DNA of 12,523 nucleotides, taken from positions 1-12,523 of IMG/VR virus record IMGVR_UViG_2541047958_000002. The stretch is one strand, 5' to 3'. Made by a program: the position numbers and the translations under genes. Below the pieces are notes generated by a model. It saw only the letters and a list, made by a program, of their open reading frames with translations. It was not told the origin of the DNA and ran no database searches. Below, piece after piece: positions 1-12,523 of the stretch; the stretch's first letter is position 1; each line of letters begins with the position of its first letter. This DNA comes from a virus (lineage: Duplodnaviria; Heunggongvirae; Uroviricota; Caudoviricetes).

Positions 1-216
1 TTATTGGTTATCCGCTTTAGAAGCATTGACCTGATCTTCCCATGATGCGATCTCAGATTCCCGCCAGCGCTTAGGGTTGCCGGGAATCGTTGGTTTAGGG
101 AAGGGGCAGGTGAAGCTCGAAGGCATGCGCGCCGGTGTACTCCAAAAGTACAGCGTACTCCGGGAAATTTTGTATCGAGCCAGGATGTCACTGGTAAACA
201 AGATGCCGTCATTCAT
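1..216 (-). CDS. alpA: AlpA-family phage transcriptional regulator / excisionase-like DNA-binding protein (71 aa)
   Basis: Complete minus-strand ORF (stop at 1-3, ATG at 214-216). The product has an 'ISRSTLYFW' HTH-like segment and an 'FPKP...RWRESEI..WE' tail that match my recollection of AlpA/Phage_AlpA proteins. A GGAG lies about 9 nt upstream of the ATG on the minus strand. Family assignment is from memory, not a search. Confidence 0.7.
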   Translation of the reverse strand: MNDGILFTSDILARYKISRSTLYFWSTPARMPSSFTCPFPKPTIPGNPKRWRESEIASWEDQVNASKADNQ

Positions 217-233
217 TATTCTTTACTCCAGGC

Positions 234-260
234 AAAAAAATGCCCTCGCAATGGAGGGCA
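234..260 (-). terminator. Intrinsic terminator-like hairpin in the alpA 5' region (minus strand)
   Basis: Plus strand reads A7 (234-240) then TGCCCTC-gcaatg-GAGGGCA (241-260). On the minus strand this is a 7-bp GC-rich stem with a 6-nt loop followed directly by seven U. It sits 18-44 nt upstream of the alpA start codon. Confidence 0.5.
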
Positions 261-362
261 AATGGGGGATAACGTGGCAGTGCATTCGCACCCAATATCC
301 CATGCTTTGTCGATACCGATGTTTCTGGCGACGTTCGTGCTGTCAGCTGAAGATAGCGGGAT

Positions 363-899
363 GTGGCGGAATATGTCGGCGTTCAACATGCGCAGGCCGT
401 GAAGCTTTGTTATCGGATAGCAGACCTGTACGGCTTAACCTCACCAACTGGCAGCGAAACATCATTCACTTTCGACGCTGTTGAAGCTCGTGATTTCATT
501 GATGGCGGTTGGTCATGCCAGGAGTACGTGGAGCTTGAACGCTTTCAGGAAGCGATAACCAACCATACCGGTGACTCCAACAATATGGTTGAACCTGTAA
601 CGACGGCTTACAAATTGCCAGATGATTTTATTTGCATGCTTACTGGTAGAGCTAAATATCTTCGAGAAAAAGGAGAGATCAAATCACCTGAGCTTTTGGA
701 GCGAGCCGCTGCCGCGCTTCAGGGGGAAAGCGTTAATACCTCCTCCATTCCTAATGGATGGAAACTCGTTCCGATTGACCCAACAAAAGATATGTTGCGT
801 GCGGGGCAATCGGTGGTTGGGTTCTGGCTGAATACAGTGCATTGCTACTCGAAAATGCTCGCCGCTGCACCAGCAGCACCGCGGCAGGAGGTGAAGTGA
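363..899 (+). CDS. Hypothetical phage protein (up to 178 aa; start uncertain)
   Basis: Longest plus-strand ORF in this interval and co-directional with the downstream genes. The first start is GTG at 363; the in-frame ATG at 586 (MVEPVTT...) is an alternative. No family recognised. A terminator follows at 936-958. Confidence 0.45.
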   Translation: MAEYVGVQHAQAVKLCYRIADLYGLTSPTGSETSFTFDAVEARDFIDGGWSCQEYVELERFQEAITNHTGDSNNMVEPVTTAYKLPDDFICMLTGRAKYLREKGEIKSPELLERAAAALQGESVNTSSIPNGWKLVPIDPTKDMLRAGQSVVGFWLNTVHCYSKMLAAAPAAPRQEVK

Positions 900-935
900 C
901 GAACAAGATGACGAGAGTTACCATAGATATAAATC

Positions 936-958
936 AAGGCCCTTAGGGGCCTTTTATT
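936..958 (+). terminator. Rho-independent terminator downstream of the 363-899 ORF
   Basis: AAGGCCC-ttag-GGGCCTT stem-loop (936-953) running into TTTTATT (952-958). Confidence 0.6.
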
Positions 959-992
959 CTATGATAAACGGACTTTGTTTGAGAGTGACGCC

Positions 993-1319
993 ATGAAGCC
1001 CAAGAAGCTAAATGCTGAGCAGCAATACAAATTAGACCTTGAATTGGTCAAGAAGAAGCCTGCGAACCGGACCGAGGCAAAAGCCCATTTGGCCGCACAG
1101 TTACGGATCAGCAAGTACAAGACGCAGACCTCTTCCAAAATCCGCGTAGGCAGTTTTAAGGGGCGGAAGAAGGTACATTTCAGTAAGGCGGAACAAGCAG
1201 CCAGGGCAGCACTAAATAAAGCAAATGCCATTAGATTTTCCGAAGGGGAGGTCGAGTCCGTCGATACGGATAGAATCTCAGAAAGTAACAAACGCTGGCG
1301 CGGGAGAACTGCTGACTAA
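993..1319 (+). CDS. Hypothetical lysine-rich small protein (108 aa)
   Basis: ORF 975..1319 in the track begins at TTG; the ATG at 993 ([11 protein letters not shown]...) is the more plausible start. Basic, Lys/Ala-rich composition. Its stop overlaps the next start (TAATG at 1317-1321). Confidence 0.5.
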
Positions 1320-1573
1320 TGTCTGACTGGAATATTGCTGCAAAGCCGCAGGAAGAACGCGACAAGGTTAATGTTGACCTGGCAGCCTCCGGCGTGGCCT
1401 ACAAAGAGCGCCTGAATATGCCGGTTATCGCCGAGCAGGTAGCTCGTGAGCAACCAGAGCATCTACGAGAGTATTTCATGGATCGCGTGCGGCACTATCG
1501 CGAGCAGAGCGTTGCATTGCCTAAGGCATCTGATCCTCGCTACATTGAAATGACTGAGCAAAATGCAAAATAA
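1319..1573 (+). CDS. Hypothetical small protein (84 aa)
   Basis: ATG at 1319 overlaps the upstream stop (translational coupling). No overlapping ORF on the opposite strand is better. No family recognised. Confidence 0.5.
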
Positions 1574-1589
1574 ATTTCAGGAGATTCAA

Positions 1590-1850
1590 ATGGAAAATAG
1601 CATGAGCATCACAACGATTCTTGAAAGAGAAAGGGAGCTTGATGATCTTGTTAAGGTGTGCCTCGATGAGCTTGAGGTGATTGACATCCATGGACAGGTT
1701 TACTCAATTCCTCTTTCCCACCTAACGAACGCAGAGCAGGTGGTACATTGGGTCTGGAAGATTGCTGAGAGAGGTGATTTCGCCATGGATGTTGTTCGTA
1801 AATTTACTGAAGTTGCGTCCCATCATGTGGGGTTTGACGCTAAAAAATAA
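1590..1850 (+). CDS. Hypothetical small protein (86 aa)
   Basis: ORF 1563..1850 in the track; the internal ATG at 1590 is preceded by AGGAG (1578-1582) with about 7-nt spacing. No family recognised. Confidence 0.5.
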   Translation: MENSMSITTILERERELDDLVKVCLDELEVIDIHGQVYSIPLSHLTNAEQVVHWVWKIAERGDFAMDVVRKFTEVASHHVGFDAKK

Positions 1851-1920
1851 ATCGCCAAGGACCGATTTAATAGCTATACACATGTTTTACATTCCGCTCG
1901 CATCTTAACCAAATCTTTCT

Positions 1921-1929
1921 TGGTATAAT
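1921..1929 (+). promoter_or_regulatory. Candidate extended -10 promoter element (TGgTATAAT) upstream of the zinc-ribbon gene
   Basis: TGGTATAAT at 1921-1929 matches the extended -10 consensus TGnTATAAT. There is no convincing -35 at 16-18 bp, which is acceptable for extended -10 promoters. It lies about 40 nt upstream of the ATG at 1969. Confidence 0.4.
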
Positions 1930-1968
1930 GATTTTTTACAGGCGAATGACGTGTGAGGTCCGGGATTT

Positions 1969-2166
1969 ATGACTTGTGAAGTATGTAACAAACAACCCCT
2001 TGGACGAAGGGACCCGCCTCTTCCATGCATGGTCTTGCAAGGCGATAAATCCGTTAACTTCAGCCATCACGGACGCGAAGCAAACGAGCGTTATTACAAA
2101 TGCTCGGAATGCGGTCATGAGTGGATGAGAGAGACAGGAAATTGCGGCGAAGGCTGGATTCCTTAA
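1969..2166 (+). CDS. Small zinc-ribbon protein (65 aa), possibly an Ogr/Delta-like zinc-finger regulator
   Basis: ORF with GAGG about 10 nt upstream of the ATG. Cys pairs CEVC (res 3-6) and CSEC (res 45-48), with an 'ERYYKC' context before the second pair that resembles the 'ERYHQC' of P2 Ogr as I recall it. The spacing between pairs differs from Ogr, so the family call is tentative. Confidence 0.45.
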   Translation: MTCEVCNKQPLGRRDPPLPCMVLQGDKSVNFSHHGREANERYYKCSECGHEWMRETGNCGEGWIP

Positions 2167-2190
2167 CTATATATTGTCGCTATTCGCAAA

Positions 2191-2219
2191 TTGATTTTCT
2201 CAAATCATCCCGCCATAAT
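2191..2219 (+). promoter_or_regulatory. Candidate sigma70 promoter (-35 TTGATT, 17-bp spacer, -10 CATAAT)
   Basis: TTGATT at 2191-2196 and CATAAT at 2214-2219 with a 17-bp spacer. It would start a transcript running through the dyad elements at 2245-2343 into the ORF at 2370. Confidence 0.3.
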
Positions 2220-2244
2220 TAAGTCGCAGTCGGCCTGAACACCC

Positions 2245-2291
2245 GATTGTGACTTCTGCGCATTTAAGGGGACTTAAATGCGACCACAATC
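2245..2291. promoter_or_regulatory. 47-bp imperfect palindrome (nested inverted repeats) in the leader
   Basis: Outer arms GATTGTG (2245-2251) / CACAATC (2285-2291); inner 10-bp arms CGCATTTAAG (2259-2268) / CTTAAATGCG (2273-2282) around a 4-nt centre GGGA. No T-tract follows, so it is not a canonical terminator. It may be an operator or an RNA structure. Confidence 0.35.
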
Positions 2292-2313
2292 TGAAATCCT
2301 CACCTTGTCACAG

Positions 2314-2343
2314 ATGCAGAAATGCACCTGCGATTTTCTGCAT
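2314..2343. promoter_or_regulatory. Second dyad-symmetry element (9-bp arms, 12-bp spacer) just upstream of the RBS
   Basis: ATGCAGAAA (2314-2322) and its reverse complement TTTCTGCAT (2335-2343), separated by 12 nt. It ends 16 nt before the AGGAGG at 2360-2365. Confidence 0.35.
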
Positions 2344-2369
2344 TCTGCGGTTTCCGTTAAGGAGGCCGT

Positions 2370-2768
2370 ATGACTCTTCCAGTATCGGAGTATGGGAACG
2401 TCAATCACTGGTTGGCAAATGGTGGCGGCTGGTTCTTCAATCTCGACTATGACAAAGAAGTGCTGGCTAAGGCTCTGGTTCACAAAGCAGCTGAGCTGCC
2501 ACTCGTCATCGAGCTGGTTACCGCTGAGCGTAAAATCGTTATCTGCCACGCTGACTACCCGCATAACGAATATGCGTTCGATAAGCCCATCCCGAAAGAT
2601 ATGGTCATCTGGAATCGTGAGAGGGTTAAGTCCTGGCAGTTATACGTCAAGACAGTGGACATCGATGCTGACTCCGCGTCGGTCACTCTGTCCGTCACCA
2701 ACCCGCTGAACAACAACATCGGAAGGCTCTATGACCCAACGGAATATACCGGCCTGCAGTACCTCTGA
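2370..2768 (+). CDS. Lambda-type Ser/Thr protein phosphatase (PPase/PrpA family) homolog, N-terminally truncated and C-terminally divergent (132 aa); probable remnant
   Basis: Residues about 8-88 ('[22 protein letters not shown]...ELPLVIELV...VICHADYP...VIWNRER') match the middle of lambda phosphatase / E. coli PrpA as I recall them. The upstream GDxHG, GDxxDRG and GNHE metal-binding motifs are absent: the frame is closed by a TAA at 2358-2360 and there is no room upstream. The C-terminus lacks the GH motif. A strong AGGAGG (2360-2365) sits 4 nt before the ATG. Confidence 0.6.
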
Positions 2769-3147
2769 TTTTGCTCGGAAGGTGATCGGCGTGCCGTGGG
2801 CTAACCGGGCCTGCTCGTTCGATAGGGTCGACTGCTGGGGCTTGTGCGTGCTGTATTACCGGCACGTTCTCGGCATTGAACTGCACCAGACGCCGGACTA
2901 CGAAGCCGGTGAGGACTTCTTCACCTGCTATCAAAGTGATGTCGTTTTCTGGCACCCGGTGGATAAGCCGGTCGAGGGCGGGATATTCGTCGGGTACCGC
3001 GGCGCGCAACCGGCGCATGTTGGCCTGGTACTGAACCGGCAGGCGCTGCACTCGCGCGGCGAGAACGGAAGCGTACGCATGGACTCGTTGCTGGTCATTC
3101 AGCGGGCATTCACCAAAGTGGAGTTTTTCGAATATGGCGCTGGTTGA
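2731..3147 (+). CDS. NlpC/P60-family peptidase domain protein, phage tail protein K-like (138 aa; start uncertain)
   Basis: Contains 'DCWGL' (catalytic-Cys context of NlpC/P60, cf. DCSGL) and a later 'HVGLV' His motif. It overlaps the upstream ORF by 38 nt if the ATG at 2731 is used; GTG at 2791 preceded by GAAGGTGA is an alternative start. It is shorter than typical K proteins and has no JAB/MPN region. Confidence 0.55.
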
Positions 3148-5611
3148 GATATCGAATTTTCCAGGAACGCCTAAGCTGCGTTGCAGGGTGCCAAACGGCA
3201 CCCTTTTTTATGACTGGCTGGCGGCCAATGATGGTAACTTTCACCGCGATCTGCTGATCGTCCGCAACGGCGTAAAGTTGGGCGAAGATGATGAGCTGGC
3301 GTTTGAGCTATGCGAACTGGACACCGTCCAGATATTCGACCAGCCGAAGGGCATCATTGGCGACATTCTCAGCCCGATCTTCAAAGTTGTCGGCGCGGTA
3401 TTCTCTTTCCTTGCGCCAAAGCCGGCGATCGCCAATACAGGCGGCAACACGATTGACTCGCCAAACAATAGCCTGACCGGCCAGACGAATACGGCGCGCG
3501 TCTACAAAGCAAAACCGGACATCTACGGACAAATCCGTTCGTTCCCGGACCTGATTCAGGAGTCGCTTTTCGAATACGTGCGCCAGAGCGACACGGATGG
3601 CGGCCTGAAGTACGTTACTGAGTGGATGTGCATCGGGATCGGCAAATATGATTACGAGTCTGTGCGTTATTCAGAGTCCAGCCTAGGAAGTATGGCCGGT
3701 GCAGAGTTCCAGTTTTACCAGCCGGGTGAAGTGATCCCTACCATCAACGAAGGCTACGGGTTCGACGACGTGGATGGCCAGGAAGTGCCCGGGCAAAACG
3801 AATCGGATAATTTCCCGATCGAGACTGCTACGGCTACTACGGTTGTGAGCGGAACTTACTCCGGCGGGCAGATTGCGGTAAAAATTATCAAGCAGGCTGA
3901 GTTTGATTACTTCATGGGCCTGGTCCTGCCGCACGCCGTTACTTTTACGATTAACGTCACCTACAGCACGCCAACCGGCAACGTAACGCAGGATGTCGAT
4001 TTCTCCGGCACGCTGATATCGGCTGTCGAAACAAACGACGGCGCGGTGGTTAACCCGGTCCGGTGGTACACATTCACGATGAGGGATCTAATTGGCCCTC
4101 CTGACGTGCCGGCAACGGCGACTATTAACACGACGAAGTTCATCCTTAACGATAACGAAGCGCTAGTGGTAGGCCCGTTCTTCTCGCCGGTCGAATCTGC
4201 CCAGTTATGGCTGCACACTCAGGTGCAGCTGGGCGGCAAAAAGTCCGCTGACTGGAAGGTCACGATCTGGAAAATTGACGATTACTACAACCAGGTGCCG
4301 GGTACTCAGCAGACGTTCACGTATCATCAGGGGACGCCGCACAAATCATCGAGCGAAGTATTTTACCGTACCGATAAGCTGACGCCGACCGGCGGTTTCG
4401 GCAAGTACGCTATTAACTTCCAGCGCACAGATAACTCGAGTGATGCCTCTATCCTGAAGGTTGAGGAGATCCACTCGGTCAACGTCAGAACCAACGTCGT
4501 GCATCCAACCGATACGCTGGTGCGCGTGAAGGTAAGGGCGACGGAGAACGCCCTGGGCAGCCGTGACCGCAAGTACAACGCACTGGTGACGCGTCAGACC
4601 ATCAGTTACAACCTGACGACGCAATCGGTGGATTACACCCTGCGGGCCTCGCGCTCGTTCGCTGATGCAGTGGCGCATACCTGGCTGATTATGGGCGAGC
4701 AGCCGGTAAGTAGCATTGACCTGTACGGGCTGTACTCGATTGCCGAAAGTCTGCCGGATGAGCGCCTGGGTTACTTCGACTACACGTTTGACGACGAGAA
4801 CGATTCGTTGGGCGACAGGGTGCAGGCTATCTGCAATGCGGCCTCTGTCATTGCGTACTGGGACGATGGCGTGCTGACGTTTACTCGCGATCAGAAGGTT
4901 GAGTACCCGGCGGCCGTATTCAACCGGGCCAATATGAAGACGGACGAGTACAAAATGACGTACGAAGCCACTCTTCCTGGCGGCTATGACGGCGTGCAGG
5001 TGTCCTACGTTCATCCGACAACCAACAACAAGACGTACATCAACTACCGCGTGCTGAACGGCGCTATCGTCGAGCAGGAAGCGGAGAACCCGAACAAAAT
5101 CGATATAGTCGGCTTCCGTAACGAGTATCAGGCGCGGGAACGCGCGCTGCGCGAAACGAAGCGCCTTATCTACTCCCGGGTGAAGATGAACGCCAAAGTG
5201 TTTGAGGACGGGATCATGCAGGTCGGTAGCGTCGTGCAGATAGCGGATATCTACGACAGCAACCAGCAGCAGGGATACATCACAGGCCGCGCCGGGAATA
5301 GCTTTGATACAAGCGAGCCAATCGCGTTTACCGGCTCGATGTATGTCCTGGTGACCGACAGCCTGGGCAACCCGACTCTGCGCTATCCGGCGACGGCACG
5401 CGCCGACACGAAGTACGGATTCACCGCGGCAATACCCGACATTCAACTTAATATCTGGAACGGAGACACCGTGCAGCTCCCGTCGCGCTACCTCATAGCA
5501 ACGGTGGAGGAGCTGAACAGCCAACTATGGACGGTCAATAGCATCAAGCCGAACACAGATAACACGGTATCTCTGACCGTCGCGGAATACAGCGACGCCA
5601 TCTACCAATAA
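3134..5611 (+). CDS. Phage tail tip / host-specificity protein (825 aa) with a tail-assembly-protein-I-like N-terminal region and a J-like central region
   Basis: Long ORF whose ATG overlaps the upstream stop. The N-terminal about 150 aa ('...FLAPKPAIANTGGNTIDSP...YGQIR') resembles lambda gpI as recalled. Later segments ('DRVQAICNAASVIAYWDDGVLTFTRDQ', 'GFRNEYQARERALRETKRLIYSRVK...VGSVVQIADIYD') resemble conserved blocks of lambda host-specificity protein J. Codon composition matches the flanking genes. Confidence 0.75.
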   Translation: MALVEISNFPGTPKLRCRVPNGTLFYDWLAANDGNFHRDLLIVRNGVKLGEDDELAFELCELDTVQIFDQPKGIIGDILSPIFKVVGAVFSFLAPKPAIANTGGNTIDSPNNSLTGQTNTARVYKAKPDIYGQIRSFPDLIQESLFEYVRQSDTDGGLKYVTEWMCIGIGKYDYESVRYSESSLGSMAGAEFQFYQPGEVIPTINEGYGFDDVDGQEVPGQNESDNFPIETATATTVVSGTYSGGQIAVKIIKQAEFDYFMGLVLPHAVTFTINVTYSTPTGNVTQDVDFSGTLISAVETNDGAVVNPVRWYTFTMRDLIGPPDVPATATINTTKFILNDNEALVVGPFFSPVESAQLWLHTQVQLGGKKSADWKVTIWKIDDYYNQVPGTQQTFTYHQGTPHKSSSEVFYRTDKLTPTGGFGKYAINFQRTDNSSDASILKVEEIHSVNVRTNVVHPTDTLVRVKVRATENALGSRDRKYNALVTRQTISYNLTTQSVDYTLRASRSFADAVAHTWLIMGEQPVSSIDLYGLYSIAESLPDERLGYFDYTFDDENDSLGDRVQAICNAASVIAYWDDGVLTFTRDQKVEYPAAVFNRANMKTDEYKMTYEATLPGGYDGVQVSYVHPTTNNKTYINYRVLNGAIVEQEAENPNKIDIVGFRNEYQARERALRETKRLIYSRVKMNAKVFEDGIMQVGSVVQIADIYDSNQQQGYITGRAGNSFDTSEPIAFTGSMYVLVTDSLGNPTLRYPATARADTKYGFTAAIPDIQLNIWNGDTVQLPSRYLIATVEELNSQLWTVNSIKPNTDNTVSLTVAEYSDAIYQ

Positions 5612-5632
5612 GAACCGTCCCCGACCAACCAG

Positions 5633-5658
5633 ACCCGGCCACCGTGCCGGGTTTTTTT
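5633..5658 (+). terminator. Rho-independent terminator between the tail-tip gene and the tail-fiber gene
   Basis: ACCCGGC-caccgt-GCCGGGT stem (5633-5652) followed by seven T (5652-5658). The T-tract ends 11 nt before the ATG at 5670. Confidence 0.75.
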
Positions 5659-5669
5659 ATGGAATCAAT

Positions 5670-8102
5670 ATGGCTACGCAACCTACAAACTTGCCTGTTC
5701 CAAGCGAATCACCACGCGACCTGAAGTTCAACGCCGGGAAAATTGATGAATTTGTAACTTCCCTGGCTGAATGGTATGTGGACCGCTTCGGAATAAAGCA
5801 TTACACCATCGAAGGACTGAAGAATCTGGTACTGCAGCAGATTTATAATCTCGGCTGGAATCCGGTTGGAACATTCCAGGGCGGTGCAACTCTGACAGCG
5901 GCTGGTGACATCATCCAGGACACAAGCACGGGTGTATGGTATCGCTGGGATAACCTGGCAACACTGCCTAAAGTTGTTCCTGCTGGCTCAACTCCTGCAT
6001 CATCTGGTGGGATCGGAGAAGGTAAGTGGCTCGCCGTTGATGTGAGTGATGTGCTTAGAAAGGAGCTGGCTGAACCTGGTGGTGCTGGCATGATGGGTTA
6101 TGACGACTTTGAGTCTTATCAGGATGGTACTGTTGGCAGTGCCATTAAGGATCAGAACTTCAGAAAAAAAATAATCTACAAACTTCCATTTCAGTTCACT
6201 GGGTATTCTGATGCACTGGCGGCAATTGGAGCTGGAAGCATCATATACCCGCAGGGTGCTGACTATGATGATGATGGTCTACTCTTCATTAACTATGTGC
6301 CTAATGCTGGAGGGTCGCTTAGGGTAATAGTTGTTTATAACCAGGCAGGAGAGCAAGTAACGTGGTTTTATAGTCCAAACAGTAGTAATCAGTCTGTGGC
6401 TATATATGGCGGAAGCTCATCACGTAGATTGTATGACAGACGTCTTGGGGATGATTTTGTTTATTATTATGACATAACCACATTACCCGCAGCAGGTAGC
6501 ACGCTTTCAGGGCACACAATAACGACAATTCAGTCGGCTGGATCACATATGTGCATTGAGGGTAATTTACTCTTCTGCACATTAAACGCGACACCGATAG
6601 GAACATCGCAGTCGCAGACGGTTGTAAATTCGTACCGTGTTGATACTGGTGAGAAGCAGGGAACTATAAATGTCTCCCAGATGTTGACAGGGTTTGCAAC
6701 TCCAGAGCTTTCGCCAACCTACTATTACAGGGTATGGAAAATTCAAGGTTTGGCATACAAGAATGGAATCCTCCATATTGGGGTTGGTGGGAGCTATCGC
6801 CCTACATTAGATGATGCAAAATATCCTGTGCATGATTACGGCGTCCTCCGAGTGTCACTCTCTGGTGAGTTAATAGACCACTCTGTTGTGAAATCAGATA
6901 AGTTGATGACATATCTGGCATCAAACGGTTGCACCGTCTCAAGAACAGAGTCAGAGGGATGTTTCAAGCACCCTGACGGCACTATCCATTCAATTCTTAT
7001 TGGTGATATGGCTGAATCATCTCCTAGCACACCCAATGGCATTGTTATAATGAGGGAGTTTTCACGGGATGGATTTAACATGCTGGATGCCGCTTCCGGA
7101 TATTGTCCTCTCCCAACGTATGGATTTAATCGACTTATGCGATCTGAGCAGGGGGCATTGTGCGATCCCGTATTAAACACAGTATTTAGTAGCGTAACTC
7201 AGATTCTTGATTTAATGGCTTCATTAAACTTAACTGAGTTCTCATGGTTTTCAACCATAGCACCTTCACTAACCACAATACCCGGCCTTAATTACGTAAT
7301 AGGACAAATCTACCATGTTACCAATCTTAACAATGGAGGATTTGTTATTGAATCTTCTGGTACTGCGCTTGGGATGGAAGTGTATAGCGTAGTTGGAAGT
7401 CTTGGATCATGGACTGCTACAAGGCGTTCCATTTCAGGTTCAAAGATTAATATTAATAATGCAGGTAGCTTAGGACAAATTTCATTTACAGCATCTACAG
7501 GTAAAGAAGTTGGTATTGCCCAAATAAGCTATACAGGGACTTCTACACCTCTTGTTATCGGCTCTGGAGGAACTTTAAACCCTAATGCTATTTTCTTCTT
7601 CACAAATCCGACAGTGACAAGTGAAAGTGGGGGAACTCAATCTTTTCAGATTTACAATAATCAGGTACTACCTGGCGTCTCTAGCGCGCAGTCTAACGGG
7701 AGTGCGTCATTTAAATGGACTCAGTTCTACGCCGATTCTGGTTCCATTAACACATCTGACAGAAGGAAGAAGACAGATTTCGAGGATATAAGTGAAGCCG
7801 AAAAGCGTGTAGCTATCAAGATTAAGGGAATGATTTGTCGGTACAGAATGAAGGATGCGGTAGCTATTAAAGGCGATGGCGCAAGATATCATATAGGTGC
7901 AATTGTTCAGGATGTTATCTCTGCGTTCGAGGATGAAGGACTAGACCCCATGCTTTACGGTATGGTTTGTTATGATAAGTGGGATAAGAAGGAACCAATA
8001 TATGATGAAAATGGTGCTATGATATTCTCAGGTTGCGAAGCCGGTGATGGTTACTCTTTAAGATATGATGAGATGTTATGTTTCATTATCTCAGCCATTT
8101 GA
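5670..8102 (+). CDS. Tail fiber / tailspike protein (810 aa) with a C-terminal intramolecular chaperone (peptidase S74-type) self-cleaving domain
   Basis: The N-terminal about 150 aa carry a 'YRWDNLATLPKVVPAGSTPASSGGIGEGKW' block that I recall from endosialidase-type and related tail fibers. The C-terminal about 115 aa ('TSDRRKK...ARYHIGAIVQDVISAF...MVCYDKW') match the Ser-x4-Lys autoproteolytic chaperone domain. The central 500 aa are unassigned and AT-rich. Confidence 0.85.
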   Translation: MATQPTNLPVPSESPRDLKFNAGKIDEFVTSLAEWYVDRFGIKHYTIEGLKNLVLQQIYNLGWNPVGTFQGGATLTAAGDIIQDTSTGVWYRWDNLATLPKVVPAGSTPASSGGIGEGKWLAVDVSDVLRKELAEPGGAGMMGYDDFESYQDGTVGSAIKDQNFRKKIIYKLPFQFTGYSDALAAIGAGSIIYPQGADYDDDGLLFINYVPNAGGSLRVIVVYNQAGEQVTWFYSPNSSNQSVAIYGGSSSRRLYDRRLGDDFVYYYDITTLPAAGSTLSGHTITTIQSAGSHMCIEGNLLFCTLNATPIGTSQSQTVVNSYRVDTGEKQGTINVSQMLTGFATPELSPTYYYRVWKIQGLAYKNGILHIGVGGSYRPTLDDAKYPVHDYGVLRVSLSGELIDHSVVKSDKLMTYLASNGCTVSRTESEGCFKHPDGTIHSILIGDMAESSPSTPNGIVIMREFSRDGFNMLDAASGYCPLPTYGFNRLMRSEQGALCDPVLNTVFSSVTQILDLMASLNLTEFSWFSTIAPSLTTIPGLNYVIGQIYHVTNLNNGGFVIESSGTALGMEVYSVVGSLGSWTATRRSISGSKININNAGSLGQISFTASTGKEVGIAQISYTGTSTPLVIGSGGTLNPNAIFFFTNPTVTSESGGTQSFQIYNNQVLPGVSSAQSNGSASFKWTQFYADSGSINTSDRRKKTDFEDISEAEKRVAIKIKGMICRYRMKDAVAIKGDGARYHIGAIVQDVISAFEDEGLDPMLYGMVCYDKWDKKEPIYDENGAMIFSGCEAGDGYSLRYDEMLCFIISAI

Positions 8103-8302
8103 AAAATAACGATGACCTTCCAATGTTAAAACATTGATTTGTGCTGTTTTTTATTCATTGTTGCAAGGTCATTGTATATTATTTGAATGGGTTTAGACTC
8201 TAGTATTTCGAATTGTTTAATGGTTTTAACTAATCATGAGTATGGATGGCAACAGCAAAATCGTGTTAGGATAGGAAAAAATCGATTTCAGGACTCAAAT
8301 CA

Positions 8303-8336
8303 ATGAATGACTCACTTCAATGACTCACTTCAATGG
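8303..8336 (+). repeat. Tandem 13-bp direct repeat (ATGACTCACTTCA x2, with partial flanking copies)
   Basis: ATGA / ATGACTCACTTCA (8307-8319) / ATGACTCACTTCA (8320-8332) / ATGG. The unit length is not a multiple of 3, so successive ATGs fall in all three frames. Confidence 0.6.
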
Positions 8337-8498
8337 CTAACTCGAATTGTTGGCGTATATTGTCTGATAGATATGATAATGATTCTGTTGGGTATCAACG
8401 AGTGGTCGAAGTGGGTCATTTTCTCAAATTGCATCATGATTGCTATATGGGGATGGTCTGAGCGTAACAATTACAGGGGCTCAAGTAATGGAGAGTGA
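8307..8498 (+). CDS. Hypothetical small hydrophobic protein (63 aa, two predicted transmembrane segments)
   Basis: ORF in AT-rich DNA where chance ORFs are rarer. Hydrophobic stretches 'IVGVYCLIDMIMILLGI' and 'WVIFSNCIMIAIWGW'. Its ATG is the first copy of the 13-bp repeat. The RBS is weak. Speculative. Confidence 0.3.
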   Translation: MTHFNDSLQWLTRIVGVYCLIDMIMILLGINEWSKWVIFSNCIMIAIWGWSERNNYRGSSNGE

Positions 8499-8709
8499 AG
8501 AGTTTTTAGCTAGCCTCAAGCCTGGAGAAAAATGGTTGGCTGAAGGGGTGGTAAGAAGTAGAAAAGAAGGTGCCTGGAGTGTTATCCGTATATCTGATAA
8601 CGATAGCCAATGGGAGGCTACCTTCATGGGAAGAACATTGCCGGTGCTTTTCAGATCTAAAGAGTTGGCACTAATCGCTTTACTTGAACTATCTGTATGC
8701 CACGACTAA
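8488..8709 (+). CDS. Hypothetical small protein (73 aa)
   Basis: ORF 8440..8709 in the track begins at TTG; the internal ATG at 8488 is preceded by AGGGG (8475-8479). Its stop is followed by the bidirectional terminator. No family recognised. Confidence 0.4.
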   Translation: MESEEFLASLKPGEKWLAEGVVRSRKEGAWSVIRISDNDSQWEATFMGRTLPVLFRSKELALIALLELSVCHD

Positions 8710-8711
8710 AA

Positions 8712-8731
8712 GCGGCGTAAATTTACGCCGC
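8712..8731. terminator. Bidirectional intrinsic terminator between convergent genes
   Basis: Perfect 20-nt palindrome GCGGCGTAAATTTACGCCGC (8712-8731). It lies 3 nt after the plus-strand stop (8707-8709) and 8 nt after the minus-strand stop (8739-8741). A/T runs flank both sides; the U-tract is better on the minus strand. Confidence 0.55.
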
Positions 8732-8738
8732 ATAAATA

Positions 8739-9710
8739 TTAGACTACTCTTCGCAAAATCGGTATTGCAGTAAATATTTTGACAATGATAATTGAAGATG
8801 CAATGTAAAATACTGCCGCCAGAGGAATGCCCCATACATAATTTGTAATTGGCAGGTACTTCCATGAAGTGAAAATAATTAATGGGTGAACTAGGTAGAT
8901 GCCAAATGCATGCTTTGAAATTATTTTTATTATTGGGTTTGTTAAGTTAGATATGTTCTTAGCATAACCAATGCAAGCAAATGTCGTAGCTATCGCCGTA
9001 ATGGCTATAATCGGGCTGAAGTTCTTCAAGCTCATTCCTTGATATTCGCCATGAACTATCCCTTTGTTAACATAAATGGTAATAACGGAAAGTGTCAATG
9101 ATAGGATAGCAAATACAATTCTGTTCTTAATTATCAAGTCTTCCTTACGTGCAGCTATGTATCCTGCAAAAACATAGAGCATTAAATAACTTGCAAATGG
9201 AACGCTTATCTTTGGAACGGGTATTCCTATTGCATTAAGCTCCGGGTATAAGGATGTGCTGTAAAACAGAATTGCGAATATCAATAGGCTATAGCGTGTT
9301 CTTATCTCTCTACATCCCATAACTATCATTGGAACAAAAAGATAAATTGCAATGTAATCGTACATAAACCAAAGGTGTATGCTTGATGGTTTCATAGGGC
9401 TAAAACTATCTATGCCTGCATTTTTAAAAATTATCAAATATGCTGCGTAAATTATCCACCAAAACGCCAGTGGAATTACAAGGAGATTTATTCCTTTAAG
9501 GATGAAGCCTTCGAATTCAATTTTTTTGTTAGCATAGAGAAAGCCGGTTATGACAATGAATATACCAATGCATTGTTTCGAAATTGCACTATAAACATTG
9601 GCCCACTCCCAGTCAGGCGCGAGTTTGGCCCCAACAGGCCCGGCGCTGGCATGCAGTAGAACTACCAATATTATTGCTATGAAACGTGCAAAGACCACTC
9701 CATAATTCAT
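8739..9710 (-). CDS. Integral-membrane acyltransferase, acyltransferase-3 (AT3) family, probable polysaccharide O-acetyltransferase (323 aa)
   Basis: Minus-strand ORF with GGAG 7-8 nt upstream of the ATG. Strongly hydrophobic multi-pass protein with an N-terminal 'FARFIAIILVVLLHA' motif typical of AT3 proteins (cf. 'LRAIAVLxVVxFH'). AT-rich codon usage. Confidence 0.8.
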   Translation of the reverse strand: MNYGVVFARFIAIILVVLLHASAGPVGAKLAPDWEWANVYSAISKQCIGIFIVITGFLYANKKIEFEGFILKGINLLVIPLAFWWIIYAAYLIIFKNAGIDSFSPMKPSSIHLWFMYDYIAIYLFVPMIVMGCREIRTRYSLLIFAILFYSTSLYPELNAIGIPVPKISVPFASYLMLYVFAGYIAARKEDLIIKNRIVFAILSLTLSVITIYVNKGIVHGEYQGMSLKNFSPIIAITAIATTFACIGYAKNISNLTNPIIKIISKHAFGIYLVHPLIIFTSWKYLPITNYVWGIPLAAVFYIASSIIIVKIFTAIPILRRVV

Positions 9711-9753
9711 GAATGTCTCCAGTTGACGGGCTTACGCCCGTCTTAGTTGATTA

Positions 9754-11712
9754 TTATTTATTAAGCACACTTAAGATCTTATCTTTAAATCCGTTCACTG
9801 CCATCTGTGAGCCATCTTTTGATAAATGCCCCCCATCTGAATACATGATTTTGTCATTGAATATTGAACGGCAGGTTCCGTTAGAACAAAACACTTCATA
9901 CGGGTCCATGTAGTAAGTATTTCTCATTGACTGGGCAGCCTTCTTTAACATCTGATTTAGTTTGTACGAGTGAGCAGTTCTCTCTCTTACATTCAATTGT
10001 TCAGAACACGGACCTGTCGCAAATGATGGTCTAGTGATACAAGCCACCACACCATTTTTATCGCCAACCCGAGGAGGAGAACCGATAATAATCAAAGGCC
10101 TTCCTCCTGTGTCTTTTCTTAGTAACTTAAGTTGCTCGATAACATATGAATAATATTCATCTTTATCCTTAAAGATGATTTTTTCGCCAGTTTTACGGTT
10201 GGTAAGAACATCTTTTGATGTATCCCAAGAGTGCGAAATAATGAGAGGCTTACTGTTACCTTTAAGCAAGTTGTACAAGTTGCCATATTGCCCGGAGCAT
10301 AGATTGTCCGGCCCGGTCCCTGGCGTTCGGATTGAGTCTCTGCTTATTAAGCACCCATGAGCAAACAAGGTGTCAGCTTTAATATGGTTATCTTTAAAGA
10401 AATTATCCAGGCCATATGCATACTGATTGGCATAACTATCGCCAGCCACTATTACTGATGATTCCTTTACATTTAAATCACCTATTGTTTTTTTGTAGCC
10501 ATAATCGTGACCACCATATTGCTCAAAGTGATATTGGCCTGCATTCTCGGCCAAGGTTACGTATTTTTCATTAACACGCCATGTCATGCCGTTACTTTCA
10601 TAGGAGTATTTTCCTGCGAAAATCAAGATGGCAATGATTGAACCTACGCACGAATATACAGTAACAATTTTAAATTTATCGAGTTTAACGTTATGGAGTC
10701 GGAATGTTTTCTCAATACAGTAAAACGTGATCAGGGAAAAAATTGCTGTGATTATTATCATGGCAATTTTATCAATGATATCTGGCGTAGTTGCAATATA
10801 GTAGTTATAAAAAACTATCACGGGCCAATGTACAAGATACAAAGAGTAACTGATTAACCCTATGTATATGGCAACTTTGTTATCTGTTACAACTGAAACT
10901 TTAGCATTGCCAGCGTAAATGGCCATGCCCGCGCCAATACATGGGATTAATGCCATTACACCTGGGAATTGAGTTGTTTCATTGTACATAAACATGCTGA
11001 TAATAATAATTGCTATACCAGTCATGTATAGTACATTAAGAATCATACCTTTTGGCTGTTTTAATCTTTCAAGGAATACGACTATAGCCCCAACAGCAAA
11101 TTCGAATGCTCTGGATGTTGTTAGAAAATATGACTTATTAGAATCTGAAGGTAGTAGTGATTGTGAGTAAATAATGCTCACTACAAACATTATACTGATT
11201 ATAGCGATAATGCCATTTTTTGATTTTAATTTGTACGCCAACGTTAACAATAAAGGCCATACGAGATAGAATTGCTCTTCGACAGACAAAGACCATGTAT
11301 GTAGCAATGGTTTTGTGATTGATGAAGCGTCAAAGTAGTCACTACTTAACCAAAAGAAGAAGTTTGATAAAGAAATGACTGCAAATATGAGAGACTTTCC
11401 AAAATCAATCATTTGCTGCGGTGAAAATAAGAGCATGGCAGCAATTAAGCTCAGAGCACTTACAAAAAATAACGCTGGAAGAAGCCGCAATGCACGACGG
11501 GTATAAAATTGACCAAAAGTAAAAGCGTTTGATTCAAGTTGCCCAGTAATATTTCTGGTTATCAAATAGCCGCTGATAACAAAGAAAACGTCTACGCCAA
11601 CGAAACCACCAGGGAAGCTAAGCCCTATGTGGAAGAAAATCACGCCAAGGACGGCTATTGCACGTAATCCGTCAATGTCTCCACGATACTTTTTTGCGAC
11701 AACTAAGTTCAC
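9754..11712 (-). CDS. OafA-like O-acetyltransferase: N-terminal AT3 membrane domain fused to a C-terminal SGNH hydrolase-like domain (652 aa)
   Basis: Minus-strand ORF with a GTG start. The N-terminus 'DIDGLRAIAVLGVIFFHIG...VGVDVFFVISGYLIT...TWSLSVEEQFY' matches AT3 signature blocks as recalled for Salmonella OafA. The C-terminal soluble domain has SGNH-like blocks ('VAGDSYANQ', 'DGGHLS'). It sits 43 nt upstream of the 323-aa AT3 gene on the same strand, so the two are likely an operon. Confidence 0.85.
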   Translation of the reverse strand: MNLVVAKKYRGDIDGLRAIAVLGVIFFHIGLSFPGGFVGVDVFFVISGYLITRNITGQLESNAFTFGQFYTRRALRLLPALFFVSALSLIAAMLLFSPQQMIDFGKSLIFAVISLSNFFFWLSSDYFDASSITKPLLHTWSLSVEEQFYLVWPLLLTLAYKLKSKNGIIAIISIMFVVSIIYSQSLLPSDSNKSYFLTTSRAFEFAVGAIVVFLERLKQPKGMILNVLYMTGIAIIIISMFMYNETTQFPGVMALIPCIGAGMAIYAGNAKVSVVTDNKVAIYIGLISYSLYLVHWPVIVFYNYYIATTPDIIDKIAMIIITAIFSLITFYCIEKTFRLHNVKLDKFKIVTVYSCVGSIIAILIFAGKYSYESNGMTWRVNEKYVTLAENAGQYHFEQYGGHDYGYKKTIGDLNVKESSVIVAGDSYANQYAYGLDNFFKDNHIKADTLFAHGCLISRDSIRTPGTGPDNLCSGQYGNLYNLLKGNSKPLIISHSWDTSKDVLTNRKTGEKIIFKDKDEYYSYVIEQLKLLRKDTGGRPLIIIGSPPRVGDKNGVVACITRPSFATGPCSEQLNVRERTAHSYKLNQMLKKAAQSMRNTYYMDPYEVFCSNGTCRSIFNDKIMYSDGGHLSKDGSQMAVNGFKDKILSVLNK

Positions 11713-11825
11713 GAGAGAAGCCTACTAAAGTTAAAACGCGCATTTTAGTAGCTATCAGGACATGAAAAAAGAGAAAACTAGTAAATTATCAATAAACTAT
11801 ATCTACGTTCCTGAGCGAATGTGTT

Positions 11826-11834
11826 GGTGATCAC
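11826..11834. promoter_or_regulatory. GGTGATCAC palindromic motif, copy 1 (contains a Dam GATC site)
   Basis: Exact 9-mer containing the 8-bp perfect palindrome GTGATCAC. It sits in the divergent control region between the acyltransferase operon and the LexA-box promoter. Confidence 0.3.
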
Positions 11835-11882
11835 AAAACATGAGCAACTAATACAATTGTTTGCAATCCTTCAGACACATAA

Positions 11883-11891
11883 GGTGATCAC
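11883..11891. promoter_or_regulatory. GGTGATCAC palindromic motif, copy 2 (contains a Dam GATC site)
   Basis: Identical 9-mer 57 bp from copy 1, with similar A-rich 3' flanks (aaaaca / ggaaaaa). Confidence 0.3.
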
Positions 11892-11929
11892 GGAAAAATA
11901 GTATTGCCATAATTTAGAGGATAGATGTG

Positions 11930-11945
11930 CTGTATTTATATACAG
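11930..11945. promoter_or_regulatory. LexA (SOS) box, CTGT-N8-ACAG
   Basis: CTGTATTTATATACAG matches the E. coli LexA consensus CTGTATATATATACAG at 15 of 16 positions. It overlaps a candidate -10 (TATATA 11937-11942); TTTAGA at 11913-11918 is a possible -35. A T7 run follows. Confidence 0.6.
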
Positions 11946-11979
11946 TTTTTTTGGGGCTATATGCCGCATCGTTCAAATA

Positions 11980-12201
11980 TTGAGATCGCCTTCATGGGCC
12001 TCGATTGTGCATGAAAGGTCAGGCCGCAGGATTGTGAAAACTGCTGATTTTGTTCAGGAACTTCTAAAGGTCAGCTGGGACTTCAGCATGGAAGAGGCGA
12101 ACCTTTGGATAGCAAGGTACACAACCTGCTTCAAAGACATCACTCCTGATCACGGGGAGAACAAAACCTGGTTCATGTACAACCCGAATGGAGGGCTTTG
12201 A
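11980..12201 (+). CDS. Hypothetical small protein (73 aa; start uncertain, TTG in the track)
   Basis: ORF lying between the LexA box and the UmuD'-like ORF. Its stop (12199-12201) is 1 nt from the next ATG. No canonical ATG start with an RBS was found, so the call is weak. Confidence 0.3.
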   Translation: MRSPSWASIVHERSGRRIVKTADFVQELLKVSWDFSMEEANLWIARYTTCFKDITPDHGENKTWFMYNPNGGL

Positions 12202-12202
12202 T

Positions 12203-12523
12203 ATGGGGTTCCCAAGTCCAGCAAGGGATTACATCGAAAGTAAGCTTAATGTGAATGTTATATGCGGAGTCACCACTAACAGCCTAGTGATTGAGACATC
12301 GCAAGGATTTGCTGTGATAGAAAAGGGCATGAAGCCATCGCCAGACAGTACCTACCTGATTTCGTATTCAGGAGGTTGTCACTTTGCCAAACGTAGAGGC
12401 GATGCGCTGATAACGATAGATGGTGAAGTACTTGAAGGAGAGGTTCTGGATGAGGTGGATGTGAAGGGAATTCTGACCTACCTGATTAACCGGGCGGTGG
12501 ATGATGATAACCCGGTGATTTAA
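12203..12523 (+). CDS. UmuD'-like protein (S24 LexA/UmuD superfamily), beginning at the GFPSPA cleavage-site motif (106 aa; track ORF starts at 12188)
   Basis: The ATG at 12203 is preceded by GGAGGG (12190-12195). The product starts 'MGFPSPARDYIE', matching the 'C/GFPSPAxDY' auto-cleavage junction of UmuD/MucA. Downstream blocks 'STYLISYSGGCH' and 'RRGDALITIDGEV' align loosely with 'ATYFVKASGDSM' and 'HGDIVIAAVDGEF' of UmuD. The protein is shorter than UmuD. The stop is at the window end. Confidence 0.5.
   Translation: MGFPSPARDYIESKLNVNVICGVTTNSLVIETSQGFAVIEKGMKPSPDSTYLISYSGGCHFAKRRGDALITIDGEVLEGEVLDEVDVKGILTYLINRAVDDDNPVI

Follow-up and report, generated by a model that had tools for sequence, protein, structure and literature searches.

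Introduction

What might two neighbouring genes for membrane acyltransferases do beside the tail spike gene of a prophage, and how did they come to stand there together? This question is raised by a stretch of DNA of 12,523 nucleotides (nt), positions 1 to 12,523 of the IMG/VR virus record IMGVR_UViG_2541047958_000002 (Caudoviricetes), which is called the window throughout and is 100% identical to the Escherichia coli contig L006. Two open reading frames (ORFs) lie on its minus strand at 8739-9710 and 9754-11712, exactly where a preliminary description of the stretch had placed them, and encode, respectively, an acyltransferase-3 (AT3) protein of 323 amino acids (aa) and a 652-aa protein in which an AT3 domain is fused to an SGNH domain. 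The two are adjacent, with 43 base pairs (bp) between them, an arrangement far beyond chance, and they are convergent with the plus-strand gene of an 810-aa tail spike (5670-8102), as had also been described.

The answer that we consider probable is that the 3.1-kilobase (kb) segment at 8704-11797 is a moron cassette, in which two independent lysogenic-conversion O-acyltransferases, brought together by modular exchange, modify a surface glycan. A role in seroconversion and superinfection exclusion is supported by comparative evidence, namely the linkage of the small AT3 gene to one type of spike head, the presence of AT3-SGNH genes in the slot after the tail genes in Citrobacter and Morganella prophages, and an arrangement resembling that of phage BTP1. 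Contigs and loci used for comparison, which carry homologues of the cassette, of the tail spike or of the prophage backbone, are numbered L001 to L039.

The AT3-SGNH Fusion Protein

The larger gene (9754-11712, minus strand) has a GTG start, and its length from that codon equals the RefSeq/PGAP length of the 97.5%-identical copy in E. coli PK5. In its product, Pfam Acyl_transf_3 (PF01757) covers residues 12-329 (E 7.4e-31, 107.8 bits against a cutoff of 31), and PF19040, "SGNH domain fused to AT3", covers residues 410-642 (E 1.5e-29). Together with the PF01757 match in the smaller protein given below, these matches bear out the AT3 and AT3-plus-SGNH domain calls of the preliminary description. 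The protein also matches phrog_6705, "O-antigen acetylase", from end to end (E 2.4e-159). Annotated phage O-antigen acetylases, BTP1 GtrC and D3 Oac among them, align with 96-99% of its length at 30-31% identity; a search of the PDB gave no sequence match at E<=0.01.

The motifs of this protein are intact. They include R17-X10-H28, an instance of the R/K-X10-H motif of the first transmembrane helix (Pearson 2020, PMC7448272), as well as GGFVGVD (35-41), FFVISG (43-48), R73-A-L-R76, GDS (424-426) and D626-G-G-H629. The fusion-specific GGFVGVD motif and R73/R76 match G34/F35/D39 and R69/R72 of OafA, and S426, D626 and H629 stand at the positions of the SGNH triad, the roles of which are known from S412, D587 and H590 mutants of OafA (PMC7448272). 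All residues essential by mutagenesis in OafA and OafB occur in the protein (motifs checked against PMC7448272 and PMC9833829). A hydrophobic segment at residues 349-367 follows the AT3 domain, as expected of the extra transmembrane helix in an AT3-SGNH linkage. Against diverged copies, the gene has a ratio of non-synonymous to synonymous substitution rates (dN/dS) of 0.04-0.06. At the level of sequence, the 652-aa protein is confirmed as an OafA/OafB-type AT3-SGNH fusion with every functional motif intact.

The AT3-Only Protein

The smaller gene (8739-9710, minus strand, ATG start) encodes an AT3-only acyltransferase from a rare, tail-spike-linked clade that has no RXXR motif. PF01757 covers residues 6-310 of the 323-aa product (E 5.6e-35, 121.4 bits, same cutoff of 31), and there is no second domain. 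The protein keeps R9-X10-H20, the histidine of which is present in 185 of 186 relatives, and it also keeps the family-invariant residues W34, F51, G56, H112, W114, Y123, P127, G183, G270, Y272 and H275; its F51-I-V-I-T-G56 segment, which resembles the FFXISG motif of the second transmembrane helix, aligns with F and G columns conserved in 96-99% of relatives. In both proteins, about 7-8 clear hydrophobic segments per AT3 region were found by a Kyte-Doolittle scan only, with the AT3 family having about 10 transmembrane helices.

This clade is tiny. A search of 1.84 billion cluster representatives gave just two matches at E<=1e-30, the protein's own 50%-identity cluster and a relative at 34% identity, and among 185,579 species-representative genomes there was no relative above 30% identity. 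Phage records yielded only four weak tblastn matches at E<=1e-5, Sf6 not among them, and sequence search found no relative of solved structure. The dN/dS of the gene against diverged copies is 0.11, and the values for both genes of the cassette span 0.04-0.15. Because of this strong purifying selection the small AT3 is taken to be a functional protein, possibly with a different mode of donor binding.

Assembly of the Gene Pair

A recent tandem duplication as the origin of the pair was ruled out, as the two acyltransferases have no mutual BLASTP similarity at E<=0.01. The best reading of the comparative data is that the pair was assembled by modular exchange or accretion, not by duplication. 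The idea of two distinct acetylations fits this origin in that the two genes belong to unrelated lineages, each of which stands alone elsewhere.

The AT3-SGNH lineage occurs without the small AT3 in several settings. Homologues of 54% identity are the sole acyltransferase in prophages of Citrobacter amalonaticus and Morganella morganii (L031 and L032); there they occupy the same post-tail slot, and the convergent tail gene encodes a gpJ-like protein or a tail spike of the GDSL type. Homologues of 75-77% identity lie in small remnant islands at the dsbB locus, with an integrase fragment (L027 and L029); there (L027, 8001-11095; L029, 8001-11048) the AT3-SGNH gene adjoins another, convergent AT3 gene of 343 aa, which is split in L027 and L028. 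It gives a second instance, independent of the first, of AT3-SGNH beside a standalone AT3.

The small AT3 lineage likewise occurs by itself. Homologues of 57-60% identity are found in a second type of E. coli prophage at the yfgI/pdeF locus (L022, L034, L037 and L038) and in contig L026, which comes from a Hafnia phage and has a T7-like terminase; in all five contigs they are the sole acyltransferase, convergent with the tail spike gene and 27-31 bp from its stop codon. The viral contig L039 (521-3250) carries an 88% copy of the small AT3 that ends after residue 233 and lies directly downstream of a GtrII-family O-antigen glucosyltransferase.

Both genes together, in the same order, are found at a different chromosomal locus in L021, with an 86% AT3-SGNH homologue followed by an 81% small-AT3 homologue. 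In addition, at least 24 contigs have intact copies of the two genes, among them derivatives in which the tail spike is shortened to 517 aa (L007 and L010) or 240 aa (L011). Cultured phages gave no match to the cassette DNA.

Linkage between the Spike Head and the Small AT3

The 810-aa tail spike has a Tail_spike_N domain, a C-terminal Peptidase_S74 chaperone domain and matches to many tail-spike PHROGs. It consists of a backbone-specific N-terminal anchor (aa 1-125) and an exchangeable beta-propeller head with the S74 chaperone (aa 126-810). Residues 126-810 are 92% identical to the tail spikes of L022 and L026, which belong to two other phage backbones and have different N-terminal anchors. 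The head of L034 is 70% identical, and an AT3 gene is present there too; in L021, a C-terminal tail-spike fragment (61% identical) lies beside the acyltransferase pair. Overall, the same head (61-92% identical) stands beside the small-AT3 clade in four temperate contexts: the siphovirus-type prophage of the window, the second E. coli prophage type, the Hafnia phage and the remnant island. A 329-aa AT3 is adjacent in all three complete E. coli genomes with this head. The head occurs without an acyltransferase in L035 (72% head, with DNA polymerase A and SNF2 genes) and L036 (50% head), both of which look like phages that do not form lysogens. The genes of a sister AT3 clade (33-35% identical) are also convergent with tail spikes, in that case P22-like ones bearing Head_binding N-termini.

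This joint travel of spike head and small AT3 family among temperate phages is, as far as gene linkage can tell, the signature expected of a receptor-modifying enzyme. Because the clade travels with one particular spike head, the product of the small AT3 most likely masks the receptor of that spike.

The head itself has no Pfam family and only 13 homologues. In an AlphaFold (AF2) model of the spike, the beta-propeller core has a predicted local distance difference test (pLDDT) score of 70-90, and the mean is 58. Among PDB folds, the head best matches those of the receptor-binding proteins of Staphylococcus aureus phages phi11 and 80alpha (E 2e-11); sialidase-type propellers match more weakly. 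A glycerophosphodiesterase function, as the match to phrog_22693 would have it, was ruled out, since the window spike has no GDPD match in Pfam or NCBIfam at a threshold as loose as E<=1; it is the sibling prophage L003 that has the GDPD domain. In two of the compared loci (L004, 12045-15749; L032, 7628-11952), a GDSL/SGNH esterase tail spike of the deacetylase type is convergent with an AT3 or AT3-SGNH gene, so that a putative remover of acetyl groups is paired with a putative adder.

Proposed Mechanism

These features can be joined in the following scheme. Transcription would start at a conserved promoter upstream of the big gene, pass through a hairpin without a U-tract and end at a terminator after the small gene. 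The AT3 domain of the 652-aa protein would move acetyl from cytoplasmic acetyl-CoA across the membrane (R17, H28, R73 and R76), and its periplasmic SGNH domain (S426, D626 and H629) would place it on a sugar of a surface polysaccharide. The 323-aa protein would perform both steps alone, as Oac does, on a different position or sugar, and its mark could hide the receptor glycan of the lysogen from the cognate propeller spike. The expected outcome would be lysogenic conversion, that is, an altered serotype, together with exclusion of kin phages. As to origin, the AT3-SGNH gene would have filled a slot bounded by the tail spike on one side and the umuD-like genes on the other, and the small AT3 would have arrived with the spike head.

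The substrate is most likely the O-antigen, because the closest annotated relatives are O-antigen acetylases and a GtrII-type glucosyltransferase adjoins the truncated copy in L039; capsule and other glycans are possible too.

Weighing of the Alternatives

Several observations weigh against the cassette as a pair of working conversion enzymes. Only 2 of 5,426 complete E. coli genomes, those of PK5 and CUPF12, carry it, and both copies are broken by insertion sequences (IS), the small gene by IS5 in PK5 and the big gene by IS1 in CUPF12. As each complete-genome carrier thus has an IS-broken gene, the cassette is, on this evidence, dispensable in some lineages. The prophage of the window, moreover, is incapable of making virions, so that self-exclusion no longer serves a phage. 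The model of the spike head is only moderately confident, given the mean pLDDT above, and resembles propellers of the binding type, with no sign of glycan degradation; in addition, the caution of the preliminary description that the target glycan and position are not predictable from sequence is upheld. Finally, the RXXR position of the small AT3 reads K72-G73-I74-N75-L76, with G73 and L76 in place of basic residues, and the basic residues are gone in all five members of the clade (G73, L/V76). In the 186 other relatives, the first R is present in 153 (82%) and the second R or K in 185 (99%).

Because mutation of RXXR abolishes activity in Oac, OafA and OafB, the small AT3 may differ in chemistry or may not be a transferase. 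The arginines are essential in all three enzymes (R73/R75 in Oac) and are modelled as contacts to the 3'-phosphate of acetyl-CoA in OafB (PMC7448272, PMC9833829, PMC4413052). Their loss would suit a protein that takes another donor, transfers another acyl group or has no catalytic role and instead modulates or inhibits host glycan modification, leaving only the AT3-SGNH protein to acetylate; epsilon15 has been proposed to encode inhibitors of AT3 function (PMC9558356). We regard this explanation as improbable, since R9, H20, H112 and H275 are kept along with almost all of the remaining family-invariant residues, the dN/dS of 0.11 is that of a constrained protein, K62 and K72 remain near the lost motif, and conservation of RXXR is high but not absolute in characterised AT3 enzymes (PMC7448272). 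The same loss could suit a dependent role, in which the AT3-only protein hands its acyl group to the neighbouring SGNH domain, or the reverse, so that the two proteins form one two-component system with a single joint modification. Whether AT3-only proteins require a partner is an open question in the field (PMC9558356), L021 keeps the order of the pair and the spacer hairpin at 81% and 86% protein identity at another locus, and the 75-77% AT3-SGNH homologues of L027 and L029 again stand beside a standalone AT3. However, that second AT3 is of another lineage (22-25% identical) and is convergent, not co-oriented, the small protein is alone in L022, L034, L037, L038 and L026 and the big one in L031 and L032, and the big protein is complete in its own AT3 motifs. 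A two-component system is therefore very unlikely.

A wider alternative concerns the polymer and the benefit. The enzymes might act on a glycan other than the O-antigen, such as the K antigen, enterobacterial common antigen, colanic acid, osmoregulated periplasmic glucans or peptidoglycan, all of which are known to be modified by AT3 proteins (PMC9558356), with immune evasion or envelope physiology, and not phage exclusion, as the gain. The weak fold matches of the propeller head to sialidases and the persistence of the genes in remnants that no longer make phage agree with this. In the CUS-3 prophage, too, a capsule-specific tail spike goes together with NeuO, an O-acetyltransferase of the capsule. 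On the other side stand the closest annotated or characterised relatives of the big protein, which are O-antigen acetylases, the truncated copy of the small gene that adjoins a Gtr-type O-antigen glucosyltransferase, and the tight linkage to the spike head, which points to the phage receptor as the substrate, whichever glycan that is. We think this alternative unlikely and prefer two independent conversion enzymes. A more specific proposal, which we view with doubt, is that the small AT3 and the propeller head form a matched module of receptor writer and reader moving as a unit between unrelated temperate backbones, in which the writer would be an RXXR-less AT3 that binds its donor differently from all characterised AT3 enzymes or uses another donor.

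Relation to Known Systems

The pairing of a tail spike with an acetyltransferase has experimental precedent, and the locus extends this known theme and overturns nothing. GtrC of BTP1, the gene of which is convergent with that for the tail spike, is necessary and sufficient for protection against BTP1 (PMC4413052). The AT3-SGNH gene of the window is likewise prophage-borne and convergent with a tail-spike gene, and its product shares with OafB/GtrC(BTP1) and OafA the combination of PF01757 and PF19040 and the motifs R-X10-H, GG-F/Y-XGV-D, RXXR, GDS and DxxH. However, this protein is only about 30% identical to BTP1 GtrC and OafA, a second, unrelated AT3 gene follows it, and the carrier is a siphovirus-type E. 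coli prophage, unlike BTP1, which is a P22-like Salmonella phage.

Further cases of receptor modification by phages are Sf6 Oac, PhiV10 and D3 (PMC9558356). Like Sf6 Oac, OacB/C/D and PhiV10 Oac, the small protein of the window is AT3-only (a class of about 330 aa), has R-X10-H in the first transmembrane helix and is borne by a temperate phage, and by analogy with the Oac type it would be expected to block the tail spike of its own phage. Unlike Oac, it is a very distant sequence without the essential RXXR arginines, and its gene lies beside the tail spike and not beside the integrase. In the case of CUS-3 of E. coli K1, O-acetylation raises phage resistance (PMC3046976, PMC13001214). The window resembles CUS-3 as a prophage that has both a glycan-specific spike with an S74 chaperone and an O-acetyltransferase, which in CUS-3 are for the same glycan. 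Unlike NeuO, which is a soluble hexapeptide-repeat acetyltransferase, the window enzymes are AT3 membrane proteins, and unlike the CUS-3 spike, the window spike has no endosialidase Pfam domains. Prophage acetyltransferases are common in general; in Klebsiella, 5-30% of the prophages per K-locus carry one (PMC13123978).

Another comparison is with sibling prophages at the yciB site (EF7-18-51 and 20A24), which have the same backbone (TipJ gene 92-96% identical in nt) and a convergent AT3 gene in the same slot. They have instead a single AT3 of 345 or 361 aa, which is 22-26% identical to either window protein and is paired with GDPD- or GDSL-type tail spikes, not with the propeller head.

What is new here lies in the proteins themselves, which are uncharacterised and share about 30% identity with their nearest studied relatives, and in their tandem combination, and further in the tie of one AT3 clade to one spike head across backbones, the loss of RXXR in that clade and the survival of the genes in remnants. 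Prophage O-acylation of surface glycans alters serotype, vaccine epitopes and phage susceptibility. A defined spike head together with a defined AT3 clade over several phage types offers a clean system in which acyl marks could be matched to the receptor-binding proteins that they block, and a naturally RXXR-less AT3 under selection could probe the proposed role of the motif in acetyl-CoA binding. The locus also exemplifies conversion genes that outlive their phage.

Extent and Expression Signals of the Cassette

The two-gene cassette (8704-11797, minus strand) comprises a terminator, the AT3 gene, a hairpin, the AT3-SGNH gene and a proximal promoter, and is 78% identical to L021 by blastn. 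Its G+C content is 0.35-0.40, against 0.53-0.58 in the TipJ-like tail gene. Together with the putative promoter and terminator and with the slot that holds other acyltransferase genes in sibling prophages, this deviating G+C content has the features of a moron.

Upstream of the big gene, a putative -10 hexamer, TAAAAT (11742-11747, minus strand), lies 29 nt from the GTG start and is kept as TAAAAT or TAGAAT in the window, L021, L027 and L029 despite saturated synonymous divergence. A CRP-like site, TGTGA-N6-ACACA (11820-11835, minus strand), the function of which is predicted only, has half-sites conserved in the same four sequences. Two copies of GTGATCACC stand 57 bp apart upstream of the big gene (11820-11835 and about 11877-11892), the proximal one within the CRP-like site and about 93 bp upstream of the inferred transcription start. 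Dam-dependent phase variation through these repeats was considered and rejected, as GATC is lost (TGACC, TGAGC) in the promoters of L021, L027 and L029.

The 43-bp spacer between the genes contains a GC-rich hairpin (9725-9742, minus strand) with a GGAG ribosome-binding site 4 nt downstream. The fold has an energy of -16 kcal/mol (z-score (z) = -4.9) and persists in L021, where one pair shows compensatory change. As it lacks a U-tract, the hairpin is not a canonical intrinsic terminator, and the spacer yielded no promoter-like site. AT3-SGNH homologues that have no small AT3 after them are likewise followed by a hairpin at this position, which argues that it is the 3' element of the big gene itself. 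A second, bidirectional terminator-like hairpin (8712-8731), with an 8-bp stem, 6 GC pairs and then TTTTAG on the minus strand (z = -3.0), lies between the stop codons of the small AT3 and of a 73-aa ORF and is conserved in L021. The preliminary description had placed both genes in one operon; their co-orientation stands, and the operon itself is only plausible, as the conserved 3' hairpin of the big gene lies between them. Co-transcription with read-through of the spacer hairpin is a plausible and the simplest reading.

The Prophage Remnant and Its Neighbouring Genes

The window has an integrase-side early region on one flank and chromosomal yciB, yciC, ompW and trpA-E on the other, the prophage being integrated next to yciB/ompW. 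Positions 1-2625 of the window are lambdoid nin-region DNA (NinB, NinE, NinI and a homologue of the DNA polymerase III theta subunit), and at about 2626 this passes abruptly into the middle of the tail module, as an internal deletion junction. A chimeric ORF spans the junction (2370-2768, plus strand), with a NinI-like N-terminus (phrog_246, residues 8-91) and a minor-tail C-terminus (phrog_396, residues 87-132). The fuller prophage copies L005 and L008 keep the tape-measure and upstream tail genes and are collinear with the window only from 2626 on; they retain the head, packaging, lysis and most tail genes, which the window prophage does not have. Because of the junction, the chimera and this limited collinearity, the element is best described, from its gene content, as a deletion remnant of about 14 kb of a siphovirus-type E. 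coli prophage, unable to make virions.

The copies in the two complete genomes have other surroundings. In PK5 (L001, 14529-20366), the cassette, the 73-aa ORF and the umuD-like genes lie beside tRNA-Asn and an integrase fragment, not at yciB, and around the IS5 that interrupts the small gene the two alignment pieces share 4 bp (window 9529-9532). In CUPF12 (L002, 1-14738), an 11.5-kb resistance region with ISEcp1-blaCTX-M-55, qnrS1, aac(3)-IId, IS26 and Tn3 fragments separates the small AT3 from the SGNH end of the IS1-split big gene.

Upstream of the spike gene, the plus strand encodes an NlpC/P60 tail protein and the TipJ-like tail-tip protein (3134-5611). Downstream of it, the acyltransferase genes do not follow directly, contrary to the preliminary description: 636 bp separate the stop codons of the spike and the small AT3, and this interval holds the 73-aa orphan ORF (8488-8709, plus strand), which lies within a lineage-specific filler of 598 bp (8106-8703) and is a hypothetical protein in the PK5 annotation. 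The ORF had no match in Pfam, PHROG, NCBIfam, PADLOC or a tblastn search of cultured phages. Filler and ORF are missing from L021, L022 and L026, where the spike stop is 27-48 bp from the AT3 stop. That they are a relic of an earlier tail-spike C-terminus was ruled out, as tblastn with six tail spikes gave no match. Across the window, PADLOC defence-system models returned nothing meaningful, and Rfam and tRNA scans were empty.

Finally, beyond the acyltransferases and divergent from the cassette lie two umuD-like ORFs (11980-12201 and 12188-12523; phrog_3893 and phrog_3469, the latter UmuD-like at E 8.6e-41). A LexA (SOS) box, CTGTATATAAATACAG (11930-11945), which is an exact CTG-N10-CAG palindrome, is located upstream of them. 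At the corresponding position, the full prophage L004 has an S24 peptidase and a Y-family polymerase, and the version in the window looks truncated or split.

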